From Terriglobia bacterium (GTDB taxonomy: Bacteria > Acidobacteriota > Terriglobia > Acidiferrales > UBA7541), in the NCBI GenBank assembly GCA_963695545.1, contig OY968796.1, forward strand, positions 2,688,001-2,752,000: a DNA stretch of 64,000 bases. Direction: 5' to 3'. A program made the translations under genes and the position numbers. This document shows positions 14,572 through 38,787 of the stretch, piece by piece. Within the stretch, counting starts at the first letter, position 1. Each line of letters begins with the position of its first letter. The notes beneath the pieces were generated by a model that worked only from the letters and a program-made list of their open reading frames with translations, was not told the DNA's origin and ran no database searches.

Positions 14572-16722
14572 TCAGGCCGAATACATGGCGGCGACCTCAT
14601 AGTCGAGAACACTGGGGATCACAAACCCGATCACGTTGCCGGTTTGACAGAAGGGAATTGATTTTTCGGCGCGAAGCAACTCGACGCGCGAGACGTTTCT
14701 GCCGGCGGGCAACGTCATGCTAACGCGCTGTTCGCCGATGGGGTAGAAATTGCGTATCCAGCCTTTGTGCGCGTGGGGATTCGTGTAGTTGAGAATGTGA
14801 ACGGCGAAGCCTGCGTCTGTTTCCCATGCAAAAGTTTCAATGATGCCATCGCCTTGAACTTGCACGGGCGAATTTCCATTGCTGACCCAGCGGATGGAAT
14901 TTTGAATCAGGCGGCTTAGATCGGTATTGCCGGATCGCCACATGGTGCGCTCGATGTCGCTGGGGAAATAGACGAGGCGGCTGGCGCCGGATTGCTTCAC
15001 GATGATGGCGGGGTCGTTCGTTTTCGGTATGGGTGGATAAGAAAGTTCGGGAGGATATGCGACATACGCGGGCACTACCGTTAAGACGGGATTATCCACC
15101 GGCGCGATGGGTAGAAGAAATTCGGCGCCGGGAATCCAATCGGTGTTCGCGAAGCCGTCGAGGATTTCGTGGCTGCGTTCGATGCGCGCGAGAAATCCAT
15201 TTCCAGTGGAGGTTTTCGGAAGGCCGAGGTTTTGGATACCAAAAACATCGGCTAGTCCGAAATCCGGGCGGCGTTCATTCTGATCTGTATACATGCTGGT
15301 TTCAAATGAGGCGAGCAGGGAGCCGCCGGCCGCAACGAAATCGCGGAGCTGCTGGCACTGGGCGTCGCTCAAGAGCGCGATGTTGGGCAGAAGCAGCGCA
15401 TTGTACTTTTTTAGATTTTCGGCGGCGAGATCGTCCTCGTGCACGAAATCGAAAAGGAAACGGCCTTCGAGTAATGCGTAGTAAAGACCTTGGACGGACT
15501 GGGCGGCGTCTCCTTCTCCCGGCGATTGATAGAACAACTGGGTGCGCTGACCCATGACGACGGCGATGTTCGCGATGGAGCGTTTGTTTTTGAAATGGCG
15601 ATCGTGTTGGGCGATCCAATCGAAGTGAGCGCGGCCAGGCTCTTGCCAGCGGCGATCGGCGCCGAGTCCATCTTCTGCGCCGATGAAGTGATACCAGGGC
15701 ACCATTCCGCTGGCGAGGGCTTCATTCATCCACATGCGCGCTTCGTTCGGAGATTTTGCGATGTTTCTCCAGCGCGGAGTTCCGGTGGACCAGGCGGCGA
15801 CGACGTTGGTGCTGCTGCGGCCCTTCATGATGGCGTTACAGACGCGCCCTTGGAGTGAGCAGCCCCAGATCGGAGCGGCGTCACCACCGCGGCCCTGATT
15901 ATCGCAATTGAACCAATCGGCGAGGCCTTCGACTGCTTTCAGATTTGGACCGCACTTGATGGCGCCGCCCATATTCGCGAAGAAAAGATTTTCCGGGCGC
16001 TTCTCTTTGGCGATTCCGTCGTAGAGGCGCCACAAGTAGACGAAGCGCTCGTTGAATTTGTCCCAATACGCGGGGGTGCGCGGCGCGGGCAGATTCTTGC
16101 ATTGATCGCAATAACAGACGGGCAACTGGCCGATGGGAGGCCAGGCATTGGTGAAAATTCCGTCTATGTCGTACCGTGAATTCACTTCGCGCATGATCGC
16201 GGGAATGTAGTCGGTGAAATAGCTTGTGAACATGCAGGTCTGATAGAGCCGGGGATCTTCGGTGTGTTGCAGGGGATTGCCCTGCGGATCGCGCTTGAAC
16301 CATTTGGGGTGGGCTTTGAGGGCGTCCTCCCAATTCAGGTCCGGGCTCATGCGCGCGACGACGCGGATGTTTCGTTTTTTCGCGGCGGAGCAGCATTCGC
16401 CGAAGAAATCGCGGTCGTTTAGATATTTGCCTCTGCGGTGGAAGGGAACCGCGGTGGGATAGAACGCGAGGATTCCGGTGACGCTGATGAGCACGGCGTC
16501 AACTTTCAGGCTGGCCCAATAATCGGCCCATTCCTCCACGTTCATGACGGCGGGATCGTGCTCGGTCATATTGAGCTGGCCGATGCGGCGGATGTTTTGA
16601 TGCCACGGCGCCGTGGGAGAATCAGGGCCTTGCGCGAAGAGATCAGCGGGCAGGGAAGCGGCAGCCGCGGCCGCGGCCGAAAGTGCCATGAAGTCACGAC
16701 GATTAATTTCCACGGGTTTCAC
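14572..16722 (-). CDS. Tat-exported GHL6-like putative glycoside hydrolase with class I GATase-like (beta-galactosidase trimerisation) domain
   Basis: NRRDFM twin-arginine leader; N-terminal TIM-barrel-like region (RDFFGE, YDIDGIFTN); LLLPNIALLSDAQCQQLRDFVAAGGSL. Confidence 0.7.
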   Translation of the reverse strand: MKPVEINRRDFMALSAAAAAAASLPADLFAQGPDSPTAPWHQNIRRIGQLNMTEHDPAVMNVEEWADYWASLKVDAVLISVTGILAFYPTAVPFHRRGKYLNDRDFFGECCSAAKKRNIRVVARMSPDLNWEDALKAHPKWFKRDPQGNPLQHTEDPRLYQTCMFTSYFTDYIPAIMREVNSRYDIDGIFTNAWPPIGQLPVCYCDQCKNLPAPRTPAYWDKFNERFVYLWRLYDGIAKEKRPENLFFANMGGAIKCGPNLKAVEGLADWFNCDNQGRGGDAAPIWGCSLQGRVCNAIMKGRSSTNVVAAWSTGTPRWRNIAKSPNEARMWMNEALASGMVPWYHFIGAEDGLGADRRWQEPGRAHFDWIAQHDRHFKNKRSIANIAVVMGQRTQLFYQSPGEGDAAQSVQGLYYALLEGRFLFDFVHEDDLAAENLKKYNALLLPNIALLSDAQCQQLRDFVAAGGSLLASFETSMYTDQNERRPDFGLADVFGIQNLGLPKTSTGNGFLARIERSHEILDGFANTDWIPGAEFLLPIAPVDNPVLTVVPAYVAYPPELSYPPIPKTNDPAIIVKQSGASRLVYFPSDIERTMWRSGNTDLSRLIQNSIRWVSNGNSPVQVQGDGIIETFAWETDAGFAVHILNYTNPHAHKGWIRNFYPIGEQRVSMTLPAGRNVSRVELLRAEKSIPFCQTGNVIGFVIPSVLDYEVAAMYSA

Positions 16723-16859
16723 CGTCCTGTTGCGTCAGCGAGATTTGTAAACCGGCAGAATCGCCCGGCGGGATTCTTGTATCACAGCGGGCGAGGGGGG
16801 TAATCCATCTTGCGTAGCATGGCGCCAAATTGGCCGGACGGTGGGTCGCCCCGAGGGGC

Positions 16860-17133
16860 GTATATACACCCCCGGTATATTTTGCGAAAGTATTGAAAAT
16901 GCAGGGTTTGCAGGGAAAGAGTGCGGATGAGTGTGAAAAGGCAAGGAGTTAAAAGCCATGCTTTTCAGTGAGTTGCGCACTCTTTTGCAATCGATTGAAA
17001 ACAAAGATGCTTGCAGGGGGGCTCTGAGTGCTAAGAGTGCAGATTTGCGGTGCGATCGGCGCAGGGCGAGACGTGCTTCGGGGCACAACGAGAGTTGCGC
17101 GGAGGGCAATTCGAATTGAATTCGGGCGAACAC
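16860..17133 (-). ncRNA. Candidate structured RNA or long 5' leader, copy A
   Basis: Homologous to 37454-37748; lies downstream of a sigma70 promoter; conserved hairpins; reading frames not conserved between copies. Confidence 0.55.
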
Positions 17134-17138
17134 GAAGC

Positions 17139-17205
17139 AGGATAGCATGCGTGTGTAGAAGTGTCAATAACTAAATAAGTATTCGAAATAATTTCCACAG
17201 GGCGG
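17139..17205 (-). promoter_or_regulatory. Sigma70 promoter of element copy A plus conserved upstream block
   Basis: Minus strand TTGACA (17167-17162), 17 nt, TATCCT (17144-17139) with TG extension; upstream CGCCCTGTGGA...TTCGAATACT shared with copy B. Confidence 0.75.
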
Positions 17206-17420
17206 CGACAACCGGGCGGCGGTAGGTTTTCGGACGGAGCGCGTTCGGCCGGCCCGCGTGCGGACGACGAGGCGCGGCGAAGCCCGGGGGAAATTTCGGA
17301 TATGTGGGCGGGCGGGGCGGTGATAGTATAACGATCCAAAGGACTTGTGTGGCCTGGAAGCGGGCGCGTCAGATAGGGTGCTGACGGCCGGCGGAGTGTC
17401 CTGGCGAAGCGAGCCGGGGA

Positions 17421-29300: not shown

Positions 29301-29937
29301 TGCCATTGAAATCTCTTGGAGAGGTCGCATTCGACCCGTCGATCGTAAAGCCCATGTTGTATCCCTGGGTGCCGTTGACTCCCGCTCCTTGGCCGTTGGC
29401 TGCGCCTGACCCGCCGCCGTTATTGATGCCCGGAGAGAGTTCAACCAGCGCGTTGCGCCAATCCGCGCCAATGATCGGCGAGGCTTGAACCGCCGCAGTA
29501 TTCAGGTCCACGTGTTGCTCGGTAGTTTCCGTCTCTACCAGCGGCGCGGCGCTTGTGACCACGACTTCCTGCGTGGCCGTGCCGACCTGCAGCGTGCCAT
29601 CAACTTCCAGCGTTTCGATTTCGAGCTTAATCCCCTGGCGGACGAGATCTCGAAACCCCTGCTTCGAGAACGTGACCGTATAGCTGCCCGGCGCGAGGAA
29701 TGGAACGTCGTACAGACCGTTAGCATTCGTTGCTGACGGCGTGACGACGCCCGTCGCCACGTTCTGAATGGAGACGGTAGCGTCCGGCACCACGGCGCCA
29801 GAGGAGTCCGTCACCGATCCTTTGAGTTCACCCGTGATGGATTGTTGTGCCCTTACCAAGGCAGGTGTCAACGCTACCGCCAACAGCAACAACAAACACG
29901 CGCGACCATAGCTTGCAAACTTCTTCTGACTCTGCAT
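26377..29937 (-). CDS. Oar-like TonB-dependent receptor with N-terminal carboxypeptidase-regulatory-like domain
   Basis: GGGAGG RBS before ATG 29937; signal peptide; GSVTDSSGAVVP, TKSGTNQWHGS, FAPRIGIAW, NVFNHPNF, C-terminal QIGAHFTF. Confidence 0.92.
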   Translation of the reverse strand: MQSQKKFASYGRACLLLLLAVALTPALVRAQQSITGELKGSVTDSSGAVVPDATVSIQNVATGVVTPSATNANGLYDVPFLAPGSYTVTFSKQGFRDLVRQGIKLEIETLEVDGTLQVGTATQEVVVTSAAPLVETETTEQHVDLNTAAVQASPIIGADWRNALVELSPGINNGGGSGAANGQGAGVNGTQGYNMGFTIDGSNATSPRDFNGSNNIVPVDTIAEISMNTANSGPEYGNALSAFNAVTKSGTNQWHGSGFLYDQNTVFNAATYGATPGHKSVTHYNLYGGTVGGPILKNKLFFFFAYQYNPSVSPGTPTEYSYPTTAMEAGNFTGQPLTTVPAGCTGCTTTSIPTTDFSTVAKNLQTYFPPATAAGWISGCPSSPTCPANDNFLYTASNKNTNTWYEGKLDYNISSKQKVSFSLNYYPAFVTDIPADPLYPSLASGFETANNYNLTGQLTETWTISPTALNEFRAGAEREYDAYLPYSWNKGTPTTLGLEPAYGSNAPYNQFPEVVIEPSSGNGAINLGVQGSTNVGSGGAGGNGNINAILGQGTYTFSDILTLIRGRHTIKVGGEFDKFYQNYNNWGASESGAFGFNGNVTGNSYADFVLGDVDQWFVTSDPQESEHNWTSGVFLGDDFKVSSHVTLNLGLRWQIQSGWGVSFNEFGTYDPNLPNPTAYTCNQTALTCSLGAQGAVLLGGSGDTATGGTTPYLDKIQNSDYREFAPRIGIAWSPGQNWAIRASYGVFIAPRDAENYTDGATAAFFSGDYLQGTAPTESTPGTPAFKLDVGPPAGTFQIATLASLNPGVLNYQGVEDYPRYEPTSYVSEWLLDIQHQFMGGVMVDAGYVYTRGTHENFQTDTDQAPLNELGTSCPVINEPVKGIMTNVNQNCVGPVPQYESIVAENYDGWSNYNALQIRAQKRASYGFSFLANYAWSKSLDTGTGGGHGSNIGTYQNAFSPIANYGLSSFNAADTVTGQIVWEVPFGSGRQFVLHGVLDEIVGGWRVSSLFQWHTGTPETATIGSGQDAIDPGLQDSLNAGVPNNGAGSTLFANVVGNPNIGSPSNLGLHSQWFNPAAFTNPAPGTFGDVGRDTLIGPHFSDVDFSVSKDFPLHWREGMSLQIRADITNVFNHPNFSNPDDNVAVGSSACPAGHPNAGLFLADCSAGTITGVTGGPRDVQIGAHFTF

Positions 29938-30022
29938 CGAGCCTCCCAAGCGCATGCCCATCAAGACCGCAAATTTAGGGTCGACAAGGATAGGACAGCG
30001 CACTTACCCCGAAACTCCGCGG

Positions 30023-30067
30023 ATACTAGTCCCGAACTGGGGCAGCATAAATCAGACAAAAGTAGGA
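30023..30067 (-). promoter_or_regulatory. Dyad box 1 (TCCTAC-TTTT-GTCTGA) plus -10 TAGTAT upstream of the TonB receptor
   Basis: Box at 30067-30052, 23 nt before TAGTAT (30028-30023) on the minus strand. Confidence 0.65.
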
Positions 30068-30383
30068 CTGGGCAAAGAAAAACAGTACTTTCGCATTATC
30101 GCCATTCCGCCGGGATTGCCGGCCTTTCTCACCGAAAAGCGCCCCGTGCTGACGCCAATATTCTGATCGACGCGTCGCGCGGGCTGACCGGGAAATCGCA
30201 GATTGCGGGCGGTTTAGCGATTCTTTCGCCTTTTGTTCGTTTCTTGTCGTCCCAACGGATGGCGATCGCCAAGATGGGGCGTTTTGGAGCCCGGCAGTTG
30301 CGCTTTCGCCTACCGTCTGACGTGCGACGCCGCCCCGGATGCGCTGGGACGCGGGAATACTGCGCGGGGCATTCCGGCTGCGG

Positions 30384-35040: not shown

Positions 35041-37218
35041 TCATCGTTGCACCGTAATCTCGTACCAGGTAGTGACCGTGTCTCCGATCGGAATCTTCCA
35101 GCTATCGCCAGCGTGCGCGGCATTGTCACTTGGCGCAGCACGCGTCGCCATAATCGGCGCGCCGACCGGCTGCCCCGCGCCATCGATCGGCTGCACGCTG
35201 ACCGCGCGCGCGCCCACGATCCCGCGCAACGTTATCGTGCCCTTCACCTGCTCGATGAGCGTCGGCGAACCTCCCCAATTCGTCACCGCCGTCTCCGCCG
35301 AATTCCACACTTGCCCCGTGTTCTCAACGCGCCCTCCCGCGATCAACAGCAGCTTCGACGCCTGCGCAATGGGCCGCGCGTCAAGCGAACTTAGCTGGAT
35401 CGTACAAAAAGTATTCTCAACCTCAGCAGCGAGATTGCTCACCGATTTACCATTTGCCCGCACAAATCCAACGAGCGCCTGGCTTCGCGGTGTGTCGATC
35501 GTCACCAAGCCAGTTTGTTGCACCGAGGTGTACCACGCGAGCTGCCTCGTGTCGGAAACGATCGGATCGGGCATCGCGCCTTCAGGAAAAACCTGAGTCG
35601 CAGGCCCATCCAGCGACGAAATCCTCACTTCATGCTCGAGCGGCAGATAAAGTGGAAACCCCGGCGTAAAGTAAGGCCGATCGGAAACCGGCAAAATCAT
35701 ACTGTCGAAAACTTGTTTCTCCGAGTACGAGCGTTCCACCACACTCCGCGCCTTTTCCACGTCGCCGCGAAGAAACATCAACGCCCCCGCTGCCAGCTCC
35801 GGCATTTTTACCGGATCGAGTGACACATCGTACGGATCGCCTACGTAGGGCTTCCATGCCGGATCGGCTTTCGGTTCAAACGTGTAAAACATCACCGCGT
35901 CCCAGTCCTGCAGCGCTCCATAAGCGGCGTCGATCGGAATCCCCTCGCCGTTGTAATCGCTCGGAAACGGATTGTTCGTCTCGCTCACCGTGTAAGGCTT
36001 CCCCGCGATCGCCGAGCGCGATAGCGAGACCACGCTCGAATTCAGCGGATCGTTGACCATCGGAGATTTGTGCTCGTACTGCCACGAGGGAGGAGTCCAG
36101 TAAATATGTCCGTCGATTACGTCCATCGACGACGTGGCATGCAGAAACGGATAGCCGCTCGCCGCATGGTTGTGGTCTGCGCTCGCGATCATCAGCGATT
36201 TCGCCCCGACCGTCGTCCTCAGATAATTTTCCATGTCCACAAAATAATCGCGCTGCAAATCGTCGTAGAACTCCGCTTCCGTACGGACGCGCTCCTCCGC
36301 CACCGCGGCCTGCGGCGGAACCGGCCCGTTGTACGTCGCCAGAGGCTGCGGCTGGATAATTGGCACCGGCGTGTCGGCCCCTTGCACTCCCGCGATCTCG
36401 CGCAGCTCCGCGATTTGCTCCGGCGTACGATGCTTCGCCAGCCACTGGTTATATATGTCCGTCAGCTCCTGCACATAAAACGGCGAGGGCAAGCGAAACC
36501 CCACGTTGATCGCGTTCTCATTGTTGATTTCAACGAACGCCACCGCCGGGTCTTCCGCGTACTTCAACTTGGTGTAGGGATTCACGTGGTCCAGCAGCTT
36601 CTGCGCGTAATCCTTCTGCAATTCAATCAAACGCTTGTCGAACAGCGAGACTCCTTTCGCGCCTAAACCCAGAAGTTGCGCATCCTCCACGCCATCGGCC
36701 GCCTTGAACGGCCGCACCACCAGAAGATTGAAATCGATATAGATGCCGCGCTTTTCAAGCTCGGCCAGGAAATAATCTTCCCGATCGAACGCTTCCGCGT
36801 CGAATGCTTGCGTGTCCTCGCGTTTGCCATCGATCAGCCCGCGCGGCGTCTGGAAATCCAGAAACTGCAGCCGCACGCAATTCACGCCGTAGCGCGCCAG
36901 CGTCGCCGCCCACATCGGCGCGTCCTCTTTAGACGGAATTTGCTGCGAACCCGGACTCCAATCCGAGATGTTCAGGCCCCAGAAGCGAATGCGCTGGCCG
37001 TCCGCGGTCGCCAGATGCCCGTCCTTCACCACCACGAAACCATGCTTGCCCGCCGGCGCATCCAGCAGGAAAGAAACATCCACCGGCGATGCTGCGAGCG
37101 CCCCGCGGCGATTATCCATCGTGGAGGGCACCATGCCGTTCGTCGTCTGCGCGACGAGCACGCCTCCGCTTCCGGCCAGGGCGAGCAATAGCGCGATCGT
37201 CGTGACGCAGATTTTCAT
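35041..37218 (-). CDS. Secreted uncharacterised clan GH-A-like glycoside hydrolase (GH148/GH5-related), paralog 1
   Basis: Same motifs as its neighbour (RFWGLN, EINNEN, TVSETN); collinear over the full length. Confidence 0.65.
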   Translation of the reverse strand: MKICVTTIALLLALAGSGGVLVAQTTNGMVPSTMDNRRGALAASPVDVSFLLDAPAGKHGFVVVKDGHLATADGQRIRFWGLNISDWSPGSQQIPSKEDAPMWAATLARYGVNCVRLQFLDFQTPRGLIDGKREDTQAFDAEAFDREDYFLAELEKRGIYIDFNLLVVRPFKAADGVEDAQLLGLGAKGVSLFDKRLIELQKDYAQKLLDHVNPYTKLKYAEDPAVAFVEINNENAINVGFRLPSPFYVQELTDIYNQWLAKHRTPEQIAELREIAGVQGADTPVPIIQPQPLATYNGPVPPQAAVAEERVRTEAEFYDDLQRDYFVDMENYLRTTVGAKSLMIASADHNHAASGYPFLHATSSMDVIDGHIYWTPPSWQYEHKSPMVNDPLNSSVVSLSRSAIAGKPYTVSETNNPFPSDYNGEGIPIDAAYGALQDWDAVMFYTFEPKADPAWKPYVGDPYDVSLDPVKMPELAAGALMFLRGDVEKARSVVERSYSEKQVFDSMILPVSDRPYFTPGFPLYLPLEHEVRISSLDGPATQVFPEGAMPDPIVSDTRQLAWYTSVQQTGLVTIDTPRSQALVGFVRANGKSVSNLAAEVENTFCTIQLSSLDARPIAQASKLLLIAGGRVENTGQVWNSAETAVTNWGGSPTLIEQVKGTITLRGIVGARAVSVQPIDGAGQPVGAPIMATRAAPSDNAAHAGDSWKIPIGDTVTTWYEITVQR

Positions 37219-37306
37219 AGGATCCCTCGTGAAACGTGCGGAGGTTCAAGGCACGTTCGCAGATTCCAAGCCAAATTCGGCGCCCGCGCACAAAACGGAC
37301 GCCACA

Positions 37307-37353: not shown

Positions 37354-37381
37354 CCCCTTTCCTTGATGATTTGCGCCGCAC

Positions 37382-37448
37382 CCGCCCTGTGGATATCCAT
37401 TCGAATACTCATAATGTAGTTGACAACTATTTTCGTCTGCGCTATACT
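37382..37448 (+). promoter_or_regulatory. Sigma70 promoter of element copy B plus conserved upstream block
   Basis: TTGACA (37420-37425), 17 nt, TATACT (37443-37448); upstream CGCCCTGTGGA...TTCGAATACT. Confidence 0.8.
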
Positions 37449-37453
37449 CCTAC

Positions 37454-37748
37454 GTGTTCGCTGATAACATTTCGAATTGCCCCTCGCCTCGCGGCTCTTT
37501 CCGCCCGCGGTTTGCCCTCGCTCATCTCGGATCGCCTGCCAAATTTCATCGATTCATTGCCATCGATCCGCACTCATCTGCACCAAAGTGCCTCTCCAAC
37601 CCCTTTATTTTCACACTCATGCAAAAGAGTGCGCATCTTATTGAAAATAAACACGATCAAGTCTATTGCGTTCACACTCATCCCCACTCTTCCCCTGCAA
37701 GTCCTTTGTTTTCTGTTCTTTCGCAAATTACACCGGGGGTGTATATAC
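37454..37748 (+). ncRNA. Candidate structured RNA or long 5' leader, copy B
   Basis: Shares GTGTTCGC, TTCGAATTGCCC, TGCAAAAGAGTGCGCA, TTCACACTCATCC, CCCTGCAA, CTTTCGCAAA and ACCGGGGGTGTATATAC with copy A, in the same order. Confidence 0.55.
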
Positions 37749-37902
37749 CCACTCTCCTACTAAAGGCGGATTCACACCCCACCCCAACTGTGCTCCGATG
37801 CACCCGCGCGGAAATGCCCGAGCGTGAGTTGCGCCTGCCGCCCGCCGAAGAATCGACGGCCACGCCACCGAACGCCGAAATTCGCCAAAGAGGGAACGAG
37901 AC

Positions 37903-38787
37903 ATGAATATCCGCGAGCTTCCTCGCATCACGATCTGCCTGGCGCTCGCCCTGCTAACGTCGTGCACGGCAGCGCTCGCCCAGAAACCTGTCGTTGAGCT
38001 CTGGCCCAACGGCGCTCCCGGCTCGGAAGGCAAGACGTCGCCGGAGACCGTGCGCATTTCCGATCAGGGCGATCACGTGATCTCGAATGTCAATCGCCCT
38101 TCGATCACCGTCTATCTCCCGACCCCGGATAAAGCCACCGGCGCGGCGGTCGTCGTCATCCCCGGCGGCGGCCACAGTGAAATTTGGATCGACCACGAAG
38201 GCTACACCGTCGCCGCGTGGTTGAGTGATCACGGCGTCGCCGCCTTCGTCCTCAAATATCGACTCGCGCACGCTCCCGGTTCCACCTACACCATCGAAGG
38301 CACCGAATTGGACGACACCCAGCGCGCCATTCGTTTGGTACGCAGCCGCGCTGCCGAATGGGGCGTCGATCCGAATCGCATCGGCGTGATCGGGTTTTCC
38401 GCTGGCGGCCAATTGGCCGCGCTGGCCGGCACGCGCTACGACTCCGGCAACGCCGCCGCGACGGACCCGATAGATCGCGAAAGTTCCAGGCCCGACTTTC
38501 AGGGATTGATTTATCCCGGACTTCCCGACACTCCGCCTCTCGCTCTCACAAAGGACACGCCTCCGGCATTTCTAGCCTGCGGCGCTGATGACCGCCCCAA
38601 TGTTTCCGAGGGCGTTGCACGACTCTATCTTGCAATGAAGCAGGCCGGCATCCCGGTCGAGCTCCACATTTTCGCCGGCGTCGGACACGGATTCGGTATG
38701 CGCAACACCAACACCGGAAACATGAGCACGTGGACGGACCTGTTTTACGGCTGGCTAGGCACCAGCGGTTTCCTGACGCACAAATAA
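37903..38787 (+). CDS. Secreted alpha/beta hydrolase (putative carbohydrate esterase)
   Basis: PGGG oxyanion motif, AFVLKYRL, IGVIGFSAGG nucleophile elbow, GHGFG; signal peptide. Confidence 0.88.
   Translation: MNIRELPRITICLALALLTSCTAALAQKPVVELWPNGAPGSEGKTSPETVRISDQGDHVISNVNRPSITVYLPTPDKATGAAVVVIPGGGHSEIWIDHEGYTVAAWLSDHGVAAFVLKYRLAHAPGSTYTIEGTELDDTQRAIRLVRSRAAEWGVDPNRIGVIGFSAGGQLAALAGTRYDSGNAAATDPIDRESSRPDFQGLIYPGLPDTPPLALTKDTPPAFLACGADDRPNVSEGVARLYLAMKQAGIPVELHIFAGVGHGFGMRNTNTGNMSTWTDLFYGWLGTSGFLTHK

Follow-up and report, generated by a model that had tools for sequence, protein, structure and literature searches.

What might an intergenic element with its own promoter do in a genome that holds it about a hundred times? 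The question is raised by a stretch of DNA (the window) that comprises 64 kb from a Terriglobia bacterium of the order Acidiferrales (GenBank assembly GCA_963695545.1, contig OY968796.1, positions 2,688,001 to 2,752,000). It contains two copies, A and B, of a cassette of about 350 nt (Table 1). A first-pass annotation, made from the letters of the window, had proposed a non-coding element transcribed into a discrete RNA of 275-295 nt. The analysis described here leads to a different answer, to which we assign a probability of roughly 0.5: the cassette, one of about 103 in the genome, would be a portable promoter with a leaderless, translated leader, which likely shields the transcripts from Rho. 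It is taken to be a promoter-leader rather than a small structured RNA because a start codon stands at the predicted start of the transcript and opens a frame that is free of stops.

A dispersed family with a fixed order of parts

The genome to which the window belongs (G000) is a single contig of 4,159,512 bp with 60.6% G+C. A BLAST search of it with copy A yields 53 matches, which resemble that copy at 82-86% over 130-160 nt; three rounds of nhmmer yield 87, 112 and 117 matches, which merge into 103 loci. The alignment on which the counts of copies below are based comprises the 80 full-length copies among these loci. The two opposite-strand copies that had been reported, each in a divergent intergenic region, are confirmed by sequence and gene calls. 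They are, however, two of about 103 and not a lone pair, and the presence of the same family at so many loci places their similarity far beyond chance.

Most of what had been said about the structure of the pair was borne out. Both copies carry the promoter TTGACA-N17-TAT(C/A)CT, a consensus scan of the two regions detects a single promoter-like site per region, and the genome-wide nhmmer and promoter scans agree in describing a multi-copy element with a sigma-70-type promoter of its own. Conservation between copies A and B is blocky, with a mean column identity of 77%. Both end in the identical 17-mer ACCGGGGGTGTATATAC, which in copy A (16876-16860) is followed by CGCCCC, able to close a hairpin. 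There are no terminal inverted repeats: in neither copy are the two ends linked by an inverted pair, only internal pairs and an end palindrome being found. After the GTG discussed below, both copies continue with GTGTTCGC and TTCGAATTGCCC.

The consensus begins with a motif, CTGTGGAA, that is present in either orientation according to subfamily (one subfamily has it inverted, as TTCCACAG). There follow the palindrome TATTCGAATA, about 13-23 nt of further sequence, and the promoter TTGACA-N17-TAT..T with a spacer ending in TGn. Beyond the -10 hexamer come 5 nt, an ATG or GTG, a second palindrome ATTCGAAT in the subfamily to which the window copies belong, and a variable C-rich stretch. The 3' block, of about 170 nt, is AT-rich and conserved; it contains repeated GCACTC, CCTGCAA and TTT(A/G)TTTTCA motifs, the GCACTC repeats being phased at 10 nt and accompanied by T-tracts, and it ends in ACCGGGGGTG(TATATAC). 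The columns of the palindrome box and of the promoter hexamers are conserved at 0.9 or above, and on the 5' side of the cassette conservation fades gradually. At least four subfamilies can be told apart, which differ in the promoter-proximal part. The 10-mer TATTCGAATA is hardly found outside the family: of its 98 strand-wise matches in the genome, 87 lie in or near cassettes. About 12 loci consist of the promoter part alone, and nearly all of these precede a co-oriented gene. C and G account for 33% and 19% of the transcribed strand, and for 39% and 22% of its 5' part.

A start codon and an open frame

In the aligned column 5 nt past the -10 hexamer, 48 of the 80 copies have ATG, 30 have GTG and one has TTG; in the remaining copy a GTG lies two bases off. 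Counted in the consensus, the start codon's A or G follows the first T of TAT..T by 11 nt. This arrangement fits the pattern by which leaderless genes are recognized in the part of PMC3160421 used here, namely TANNNT about 12 nt before the start codon, and such genes were predicted there in three of three Acidobacteria genomes.

Over the part of the cassette that follows the start codon, the 80 copies together have five stops in the frame set by that codon (frame 0), compared with 119 and 158 in the other two frames. Expressed by copy, frame 0 is free of stops in 76/80, the others in 15/80 and 11/80. In the unconserved spacer between the cassette and the next gene, frame 0 is likewise stop-free in 39 of 50 copies, as against 22 and 21. 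The term 'non-coding' therefore cannot stand as it was applied, since uninterrupted frames run from the +1 GTG for 132 codons in copy A and 150 codons in copy B. That of copy A spans the entire cassette and stops 13 nt short of the next gene; in copy B the TGA of the frame (37904-37906) overlaps the ATG (37903) of the next gene. It had also been noted that reading frames shift between the copies, which is correct for the conserved blocks, but neither copy has its open frame broken.

A conserved TGA lies at 49 different distances from the start codon (82-329 nt) and is in frame with it in six of the 80 copies; in 15 copies TCA replaces the TGA. Since this distance is so variable and yet so rarely in frame, the frame is not one inherited frame. 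The conserved blocks are read in two phases, by 20 and 38 copies in one case and by 38 and 27 in another, where the same block gives LQKSAHLIE in the 38 copies and CKRVRNSLK in the 27. The pattern recurs in two sister species: among the 24 distinct full copies examined there, the promoter and start codon are found in 21, and frame 0 is stop-free in 18 of the 21, compared with one and none for the other frames. From the stop counts, the two-phase reading and this repetition in sister species, it follows that the frame is kept open by selection, and that the peptide it encodes is not conserved.

The obvious alternative is that the cassettes are members of a real family of small-protein genes, with products of about 100-180 residues. 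The frequency with which the frame is open is what such a family would predict, and the peptides of copies A and B do share a stretch of 25 residues (19/25 identical). That stretch is, however, all that they share. The same DNA blocks give unrelated peptides in the two phases, third codon positions display no excess variation, no Pfam family was found for the frame of either window copy, and both the length of the frame and its end point vary with the DNA downstream. A conserved small protein is hardly credible on these grounds. A classical leader-peptide attenuator was also considered and rejected; the frame is 100-180 codons long or more, and there is neither a conserved run of codons nor a terminator.

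Tests for a structured RNA

A scan of the window against Rfam gave no match at the gathering score, in keeping with the earlier remark that the element was not recognized as a known family; permissive scans gave two chance-level matches for copy A (E 2.5 and 4.5) and none for copy B. RNAalifold found no consensus structure in the 80 copies (energy 0.0), and for 54 copies from three species it returned -0.05 kcal/mol with five invariant pairs and no compensatory ones. The sole long candidate stem pairs AAAAGAGTGCG with CGCACTCTTTT, together with TGAAAA with TTTTCA. Pairing reaches 86% in this stem, but the changes are one-sided: the candidate structure of 17 pairs has a double change in one of 918 cells, its covariation is 0.040 compared with 0.039 in shuffled alignments (161 of 500 shuffles being equally high), and some copies in the sister species (G003 or G004) retain the right arm unchanged but have a diverged left arm. 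The pairs of columns with the highest mutual information mark subfamilies, not base pairs. A structured RNA is not supported by these comparisons. A leader or riboswitch belonging to a specific regulon was dropped as a candidate, the downstream genes being unrelated and conserved structure lacking.

This bears on the proposal that the cassettes are a multi-copy family of small RNAs, each copy specifying its own discrete non-coding RNA (about 280 nt), which would act in trans or titrate a protein. There are reasons for which it was worth making. Each of the roughly 100 copies has a strong promoter-like site, a protein could recognize the linear motifs that recur in the cassette, the fold of copy A is better than that of its shuffled versions (z = -3.48), and 30 of the 80 copies have a 3' end capable of forming a G-run/C-run hairpin, though one that lacks a T-run, compared with 9 of 80 in a control window. 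For copy B, however, the folding advantage is weak (z = -1.56), and between the promoter and the next gene no terminator-like site was found on the cassette strand of copy A or B. In addition, the 5' end of the supposed RNA would coincide with a start codon, and the frame is protected from stops well past the proposed 3' end. A family of this kind is thus very improbable, and the discrete RNA with a conserved fold finds neither consensus structure, covariation nor terminator to sustain it. Of the three functions originally offered, a portable leader comes close to the data; the small RNA and the protein-sequestering RNA are unsupported.

How a translated leader would work

In the promoter-leader scheme, RNA polymerase would start at the A or G of the ATG or GTG codon, which would thereby occupy position +1. 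Ribosomes would load on this 5'-terminal start codon and trail the polymerase through the C-rich, G-poor leader. RNA rich in C and poor in G has the composition that Rho prefers. The cover provided by the ribosomes would keep Rho off until the downstream gene's own translation takes over; where a cassette faces the 3' end of a gene, the cover would last until the antisense transcript has crossed that gene. Rho is encoded in the genome and, according to the part of PMC12548453 drawn on here, loads onto RNA that is not being translated, with polarity as the result. Any stop arising in the leader would silence the gene, and this would explain the purging of stops. The selected trait would then be the act of translation rather than the peptide made. 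The conserved blocks and the palindromic box may be protein-binding sites at the level of DNA, perhaps for the CCCH-motif protein described below.

If this is true, the lineage has mass-copied a complete expression starter that unites operator, promoter and leaderless start codon, the sole task of the codon being to make ribosomes follow the polymerase. Nature would here offer, about 100 times within one genome, an example of translation that is selected as an act and not for its product. Such a case would also provide a clean system for the study of leaderless initiation and of regulon growth by the spread of promoters, as well as one for transcription-translation coupling and Rho in the Acidobacteria, which are a major phylum in soil and difficult to culture.

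Genes next to the cassettes

The next gene is co-oriented with the cassette at 77 of the 103 loci (P = 2.5e-7), and at 37 of the 53 that lie in co-directional gaps. By type of gap, 40 cassettes are in divergent gaps, 37 in co-directional gaps in the sense orientation, 16 in co-directional gaps in the antisense orientation, and 10 in convergent gaps. Divergent gaps therefore host 39% of the cassettes, compared with their share of 24% of all gaps in the genome; convergent gaps make up 18% of all gaps. The 30 downstream proteins scanned against Pfam include SecA, EPSP synthase, a BipA-like GTPase, two fucosidases, a peptidase M16 and hydrolases, among others. They belong to unrelated families, and so have no common function. 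In the 58 co-oriented full copies, the open frame reaches the start of the next gene in 44, and its phase relative to the called start has no preference (18, 22 and 18 copies).

A further 23 cassettes with a mapped start codon face the 3' end of a gene. The facing gene is reached without a stop in 22 of these, and in 14 frame 0 then runs for at least 150 codons antisense into the gene, which the other frames do in two copies each. Antisense runs of at least 300 codons are found in 10 copies for frame 0 and in one and two for the others. Thirteen of the 14 facing genes encode proteins with clear Pfam domains, among them aconitase, RNase E/G, an EF-G homologue, a release factor, a fumarase-type lyase and an aminotransferase. 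A given antisense frame has a genome-wide chance of 0.13 of staying open over 150 codons. Where any frame is open, frame 0 is in register in 14 of 18 cases (P = 1.4e-4), even if every gene is granted one open antisense frame.

Weighing the promoter-leader

Several considerations weigh against the promoter-leader. Transcription from the cassettes, the leaderless translation and the role of Rho are all inferred, and the five sequencing runs that cover the region are DNA metagenomes. The strand is pyrimidine-rich, which lowers the number of stops generally, and yet the two other frames, on the same strand, hold the 119 and 158 stops given above. In 18 of the 58 co-oriented copies the frame is in phase with the start of the gene, and it often runs into the gene to give open reading frames of several hundred codons; in-phase read-through would furnish ordinary enzymes with at least 100 unselected extra residues. 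An ATGA-type stop/start overlap of 4 nt is present in 8 of the 58, copy B included, which by a rough estimate, rather than a computed one, is no more than chance would give, so no claim of ribosome hand-over is made. At 26 of the 103 loci the cassette has no gene to drive. Neither a transposase, nor end repeats, nor a target duplication was found for the cassettes, so their mobility is read from distribution alone.

The antisense frames call for similar caution. Three of the facing genes were checked in relatives, and cassette-free orthologues often have long antisense frames that are codon-aligned in the same way. In the window's own genome the antisense frame is fully open in all three (prfB, the fumarase-type lyase and the aminotransferase). 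Among cassette-free relatives it has at least 333 open codons in 7 of 14 for prfB, is nearly fully open in 2 of 10 for the lyase, and is so in none of 3 for the aminotransferase. It follows that the cassettes did not create the long antisense frames; the non-random part is which genes the cassettes face, and the register. Long shadow frames are common in this clade, as judged from the prfB and lyase orthologues in 14 cassette-free relatives, and the prfB antisense frame is open for 366/366 codons in one genome (G008) and 351/351 in another (G028).

The placement of the cassettes along the chromosome is a further difficulty. The gaps between them have a coefficient of variation of 0.59, compared with 0.98 +/- 0.09 for random intergenic placement, and none of 2000 random trials gave a value as low; the smallest gap between cassettes is 4.4 kb. 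Even spacing of this kind is not predicted by a promoter-leader, which does not explain the 170-nt block or the in-register antisense frames either. Because these three features are left over, the alternatives have to be kept alive, and no known repeat family explains the even spacing and the in-register antisense frames.

One such alternative is that the cassettes are chromosome-level signposts, that is, evenly placed DNA sites with a job that is independent of the neighbouring gene. They might mark domain boundaries by strong, Rho-resistant transcription, or be local starts for DNA replication or packaging. In its favour are the spacing, the quarter of the copies that drive no gene and yet keep a frame open far into the facing gene, and the 170-nt block, with its phased repeats and T-tracts and no RNA-structure signal. 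Placement nevertheless favours gene starts, both in the excess of co-oriented loci and in the excess in divergent gaps, and between species the cassettes follow the downstream gene (16/29) over the upstream flank (6/19). No packaging or replication protein was linked to them in this analysis, and their orientation is unrelated to the replication arms defined by GC skew (49/103 co-oriented). Signposts are, on balance, decidedly unlikely. As to the arms themselves, the cumulative skew has its minimum at about 0.65 Mb and its maximum at about 3.45 Mb, giving very unequal arms of 2.8 and 1.36 Mb, and only 55% of the called genes are co-oriented with them.

The promoter-leader can also be extended into a more ambitious and distinctly doubtful scheme. 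The cassettes would be about 100 evenly spaced, Rho-proof launchers that use a meaningless leaderless frame as an anti-termination device and share a palindromic operator. Three-quarters of them would switch genes on, and one-quarter would send ribosome-covered antisense RNA across the full length of facing genes such as those for release factor 2, aconitase, RNase E/G and the EF-G homologue. A single regulator, perhaps the CCCH-motif protein, could in this way reprogramme the cell or partition the chromosome.

A cognate small protein and the probable origin of the family

Four cassettes precede paralogous genes whose product, about 140 residues long, has invariant C17, C27, C39 and H42 (the CCCH motif) together with a helical C-terminal half, and all four genes for this protein in the genome lie directly behind a cassette. 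The protein has no Pfam domain, and an AlphaFold model from 36 sequences is poor (mean predicted local distance difference test score 62.9, predicted template modelling score 0.41). There are 213 homologues, of which the best 120 are all without a name or 'hypothetical'; the named ones come from metagenome-assembled genomes (MAGs) of Acidiferrales or Acidoferrum. The protein family is found in 14 of 30 genera sampled and has multiple copies in several related ones, with 11, 8 and 6 matches in G018, G015 and G020, respectively.

In a genome of another genus (G014), the region upstream of the CCCH gene has the same layout, with TTGACA hexamers and repeated units, and ends in CAAAAAC followed by a C-run/G-run/C-run hairpin. 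It is itself a repeat of upward of 25 copies, with 29 matches, many of them at contig ends, and a BLAST search from the G000 cassette misses it. In G022 a shorter version of the region is single-copy. The repeat in the former and the single-copy version in the latter make the upstream region of the CCCH gene the likely source of the cassette. On this comparison, the family probably arose there, with separate expansions in different lineages. The cassettes would have spread from that region, and many copies have since been retained at the same genes across species.

Distribution and mobility

With BLAST, all five other genomes of the same genus match the cassette (23 matches in G003, 18 in G004, and one or two, mostly to the promoter part, in each of the other three). 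No match was obtained in 19 other genomes of the family or in 16 from elsewhere in the order. A 21-letter pattern from a conserved block was found at 15 places in public species genomes, a collection that may omit the window's own genome, and 14 of these are in one Candidatus Acidiferrales MAG. The 15th is on a 3.8-kb contig binned as Bradyrhizobium, which looks more like a binning error than a transfer.

For 30 copies from sister species, the downstream flank finds a counterpart in the window's genome in 29 cases, and 16 of the 29 carry a cassette there in the same orientation. For the upstream flank, agreement between species is 6/19. Cassettes therefore stay with the downstream gene far more than with upstream DNA, and rearrangement or gain of DNA seems to be concentrated just upstream of them. 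The other 13 of the 29 positions differ between species, and one locus of the window's genome is cassette-free in G005. An orthologous pair keeps the same blocks as paralogues do, the rest having diverged. Filled and cassette-free sites (G005; G000 versus G004; G000 versus G003) are too diverged for junctions to be placed.

The genome has six matches to the Y1_Tnp domain. Three of them lie in Y1 transposase units of the IS200/RAYT type, about 930 nt long and with 165-nt inverted ends (Table 1), and the end repeats of these units are unrelated to the cassette. Genome-wide there are 21 matches to the Y1 end repeat, 12 of them within 2 kb of a cassette, and the DNA in between is not homologous. 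The TnpB-type domain PF07282 has no match in the genome. Two candidates were rejected in this connection: a TnpB/IscB guide-RNA or IS605-type element, which the conserved 3' block and the lack of end repeats had suggested, given that PF07282 is lacking, that there is no replication-strand bias and that a frame is open; and a REP/REPIN system with its RAYT, given that the cassette is not a palindromic pair and that the Y1 units carry unrelated ends of their own.

These data bear on the possibility that the cassette is a selfish, non-autonomous mobile repeat without host function, for which the CCCH-motif gene or the Y1 transposase would be the autonomous partner. Promoter and frame would then survive because insertions that are polar or break expression are purged, as with MIRUs and the in-frame Rickettsia palindromic elements. 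Subfamilies with diagnostic positions, restriction to one genus by sequence, the 13 positions without a counterpart at the orthologous gene, the independent expansion in G014 and the clustering of Y1 end repeats near cassettes are all as expected of such a repeat, and MIRUs insert in such a way that their internal frame couples to the next gene (PMC12548453, from the part used here). Set against this, copies A and B have no terminal inverted repeats, no clean pair of filled and empty sites or target duplication can be derived from the diverged relatives, and the Y1 units have different ends. Orthologous copies have kept their blocks, promoter and start codon while other positions diverged, 16 of 29 positions are common to the species, and mere harmlessness leaves the register of the antisense frames unexplained. 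We consider a purely selfish repeat unlikely.

Relation to described systems

The nearest described class is the putative mobile promoters (PMPs) of Matus-Garcia, Nijveen and van Passel (2012), and the nearest functional analogue the MIRU. According to a commentary (PMC3575422), PMPs are similar stretches of promoter DNA before unrelated genes; their families are mostly pairs, defined by 80% identity over 50 nt within a window from -150 to -50. The cassettes likewise place similar promoter DNA before unrelated genes of one genome, with neither a known insertion sequence nor a known means of movement in either case. At 82-86% over 130-160 nt before non-homologous genes, they lie within the PMP definition of at least 80% over at least 50 nt. 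They differ in their number (about 100), their length (350 nt), the fixed start codon, the open frame, the 170-nt block and the even spacing, which are absent from the PMP description.

MIRUs, as presented in the part of PMC12548453 drawn on here, are also dispersed intergenic repeats with an internal frame directed toward the next gene, a frame that appears to matter by being translated and not by its product. They are short and promoterless and have a fixed 4-nt overlap, whereas the cassettes have their own promoter and a leaderless codon, with the overlap in 8/58 copies. Leaderless upstream open reading frames in mycobacteria offer another likeness: in the portion of PMC4633059 used here, an unannotated frame from an ATG or GTG at +1 precedes an annotated gene and ends before it, overlaps it or enters it. 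As in other translated leaders, translation would keep Rho off the RNA (PMC12548453, same part). Those upstream frames are single-locus and mostly under 50 residues, as described there; the cassettes number about 100, have frames of 100-180 codons or more, and also run antisense into genes.

A third comparison is with small high-copy intergenic repeats that are able to supply promoters to their neighbours. Terminal inverted repeats or palindromic hairpin units characterize Correia elements, ERIC and REPIN, the first of which also have TA target duplications. The Correia elements of Neisseria, ERIC and REPIN are named as promoter-bearing miniature repeats in PMC3575422. Cassettes A and B have no end repeats that could be found, in contrast to these elements, and the Y1 units of the genome carry a different repeat.

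The combination seen here (a leaderless start about 100 times over, an open frame read in two phases, its antisense extension, even spacing and a cognate small protein) was found neither in the PMP and MIRU descriptions, the latter as far as the part used here goes, nor in the literature searched. No description of the cassette was found in the literature searched on Acidobacteria intergenic repeats and promoters or on Acidiferrales, the latter from listings.

Features of the window and related loci

The positions of the parts of both window copies, of the genes downstream of them and of the related loci elsewhere in the genome are collected in Table 1.

Table 1. Parts of cassettes A and B, their downstream genes and related loci. 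Positions are those of the 64-kb window unless marked G000, the window's own genome.
Feature	Position	Strand	Basis or remark
Copy A, whole cassette	16850..17216 (G000 2704850-2705216)	-	nhmmer match, profile positions 2-385, score 303.5
Copy A, upstream motif CTGTGGAA	17193..17200	-	sequence reading
Copy A, palindrome box TTCGAATA, here ATTTCGAATA	17180..17189	-	~13 nt upstream of -35
Copy A, promoter	TTGACA 17167-17162; TATCCT 17144-17139	-	17-nt spacer with TG; 10/12 consensus positions
Copy A, GTG, predicted leaderless start codon	17131..17133	-	at predicted transcript start, 5 nt past -10 hexamer
Copy A, second palindrome AATTCGAATT	17108..17117	-	downstream of start; marks subfamily of both window copies
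Copy A, open frame from +1 GTG	16735..17133	-	132 codons + stop
Copy A, conserved AT-rich 3' block	16860..17050	-	repeated GCACTC / TTTTCA / CCTGCAA motifs
Gene downstream of copy A	14572..16722	-	secreted glycosidase-like protein (GHL6 domain, TAT signal)
Copy B, whole cassette	37378..37767 (G000 2725378-2725767)	+	nhmmer match, profile positions 9-394, score 323.6
Copy B, motif CTGTGGAT and box ATTCGAATA	37387-37394; 37399-37407	+	
Copy B, promoter	TTGACA 37420-37425; TATACT 37443-37448	+	17-nt spacer; 11/12 consensus positions
Copy B, open frame from +1 GTG	37454..37906	+	150 codons
Copy B, conserved 3' block	37560..37748	+	ends in ACCGGGGGTGTATATAC (37732-37748)
Gene downstream of copy B	37903..38787	+	alpha/beta-hydrolase (BD-FAE / Abhydrolase_3)
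Y1 (IS200/RAYT-type) transposase units	G000 1198716-1199647; 1475559-1476462; 1478583-1479438		~930 nt, 165-nt inverted ends
CCCH-motif genes	G000 29787-30203; 524838-525167; 3745302-3745718; 3770458-3770871		

Near copy B there is, in addition, a terminator-like hairpin with a T-rich tail at 37278-37304 on the minus strand, about 75 nt upstream of the left edge of the cassette. The gap in which it lies precedes the start of the divergent gene at 35041-37218, and the hairpin is on the strand of that gene.

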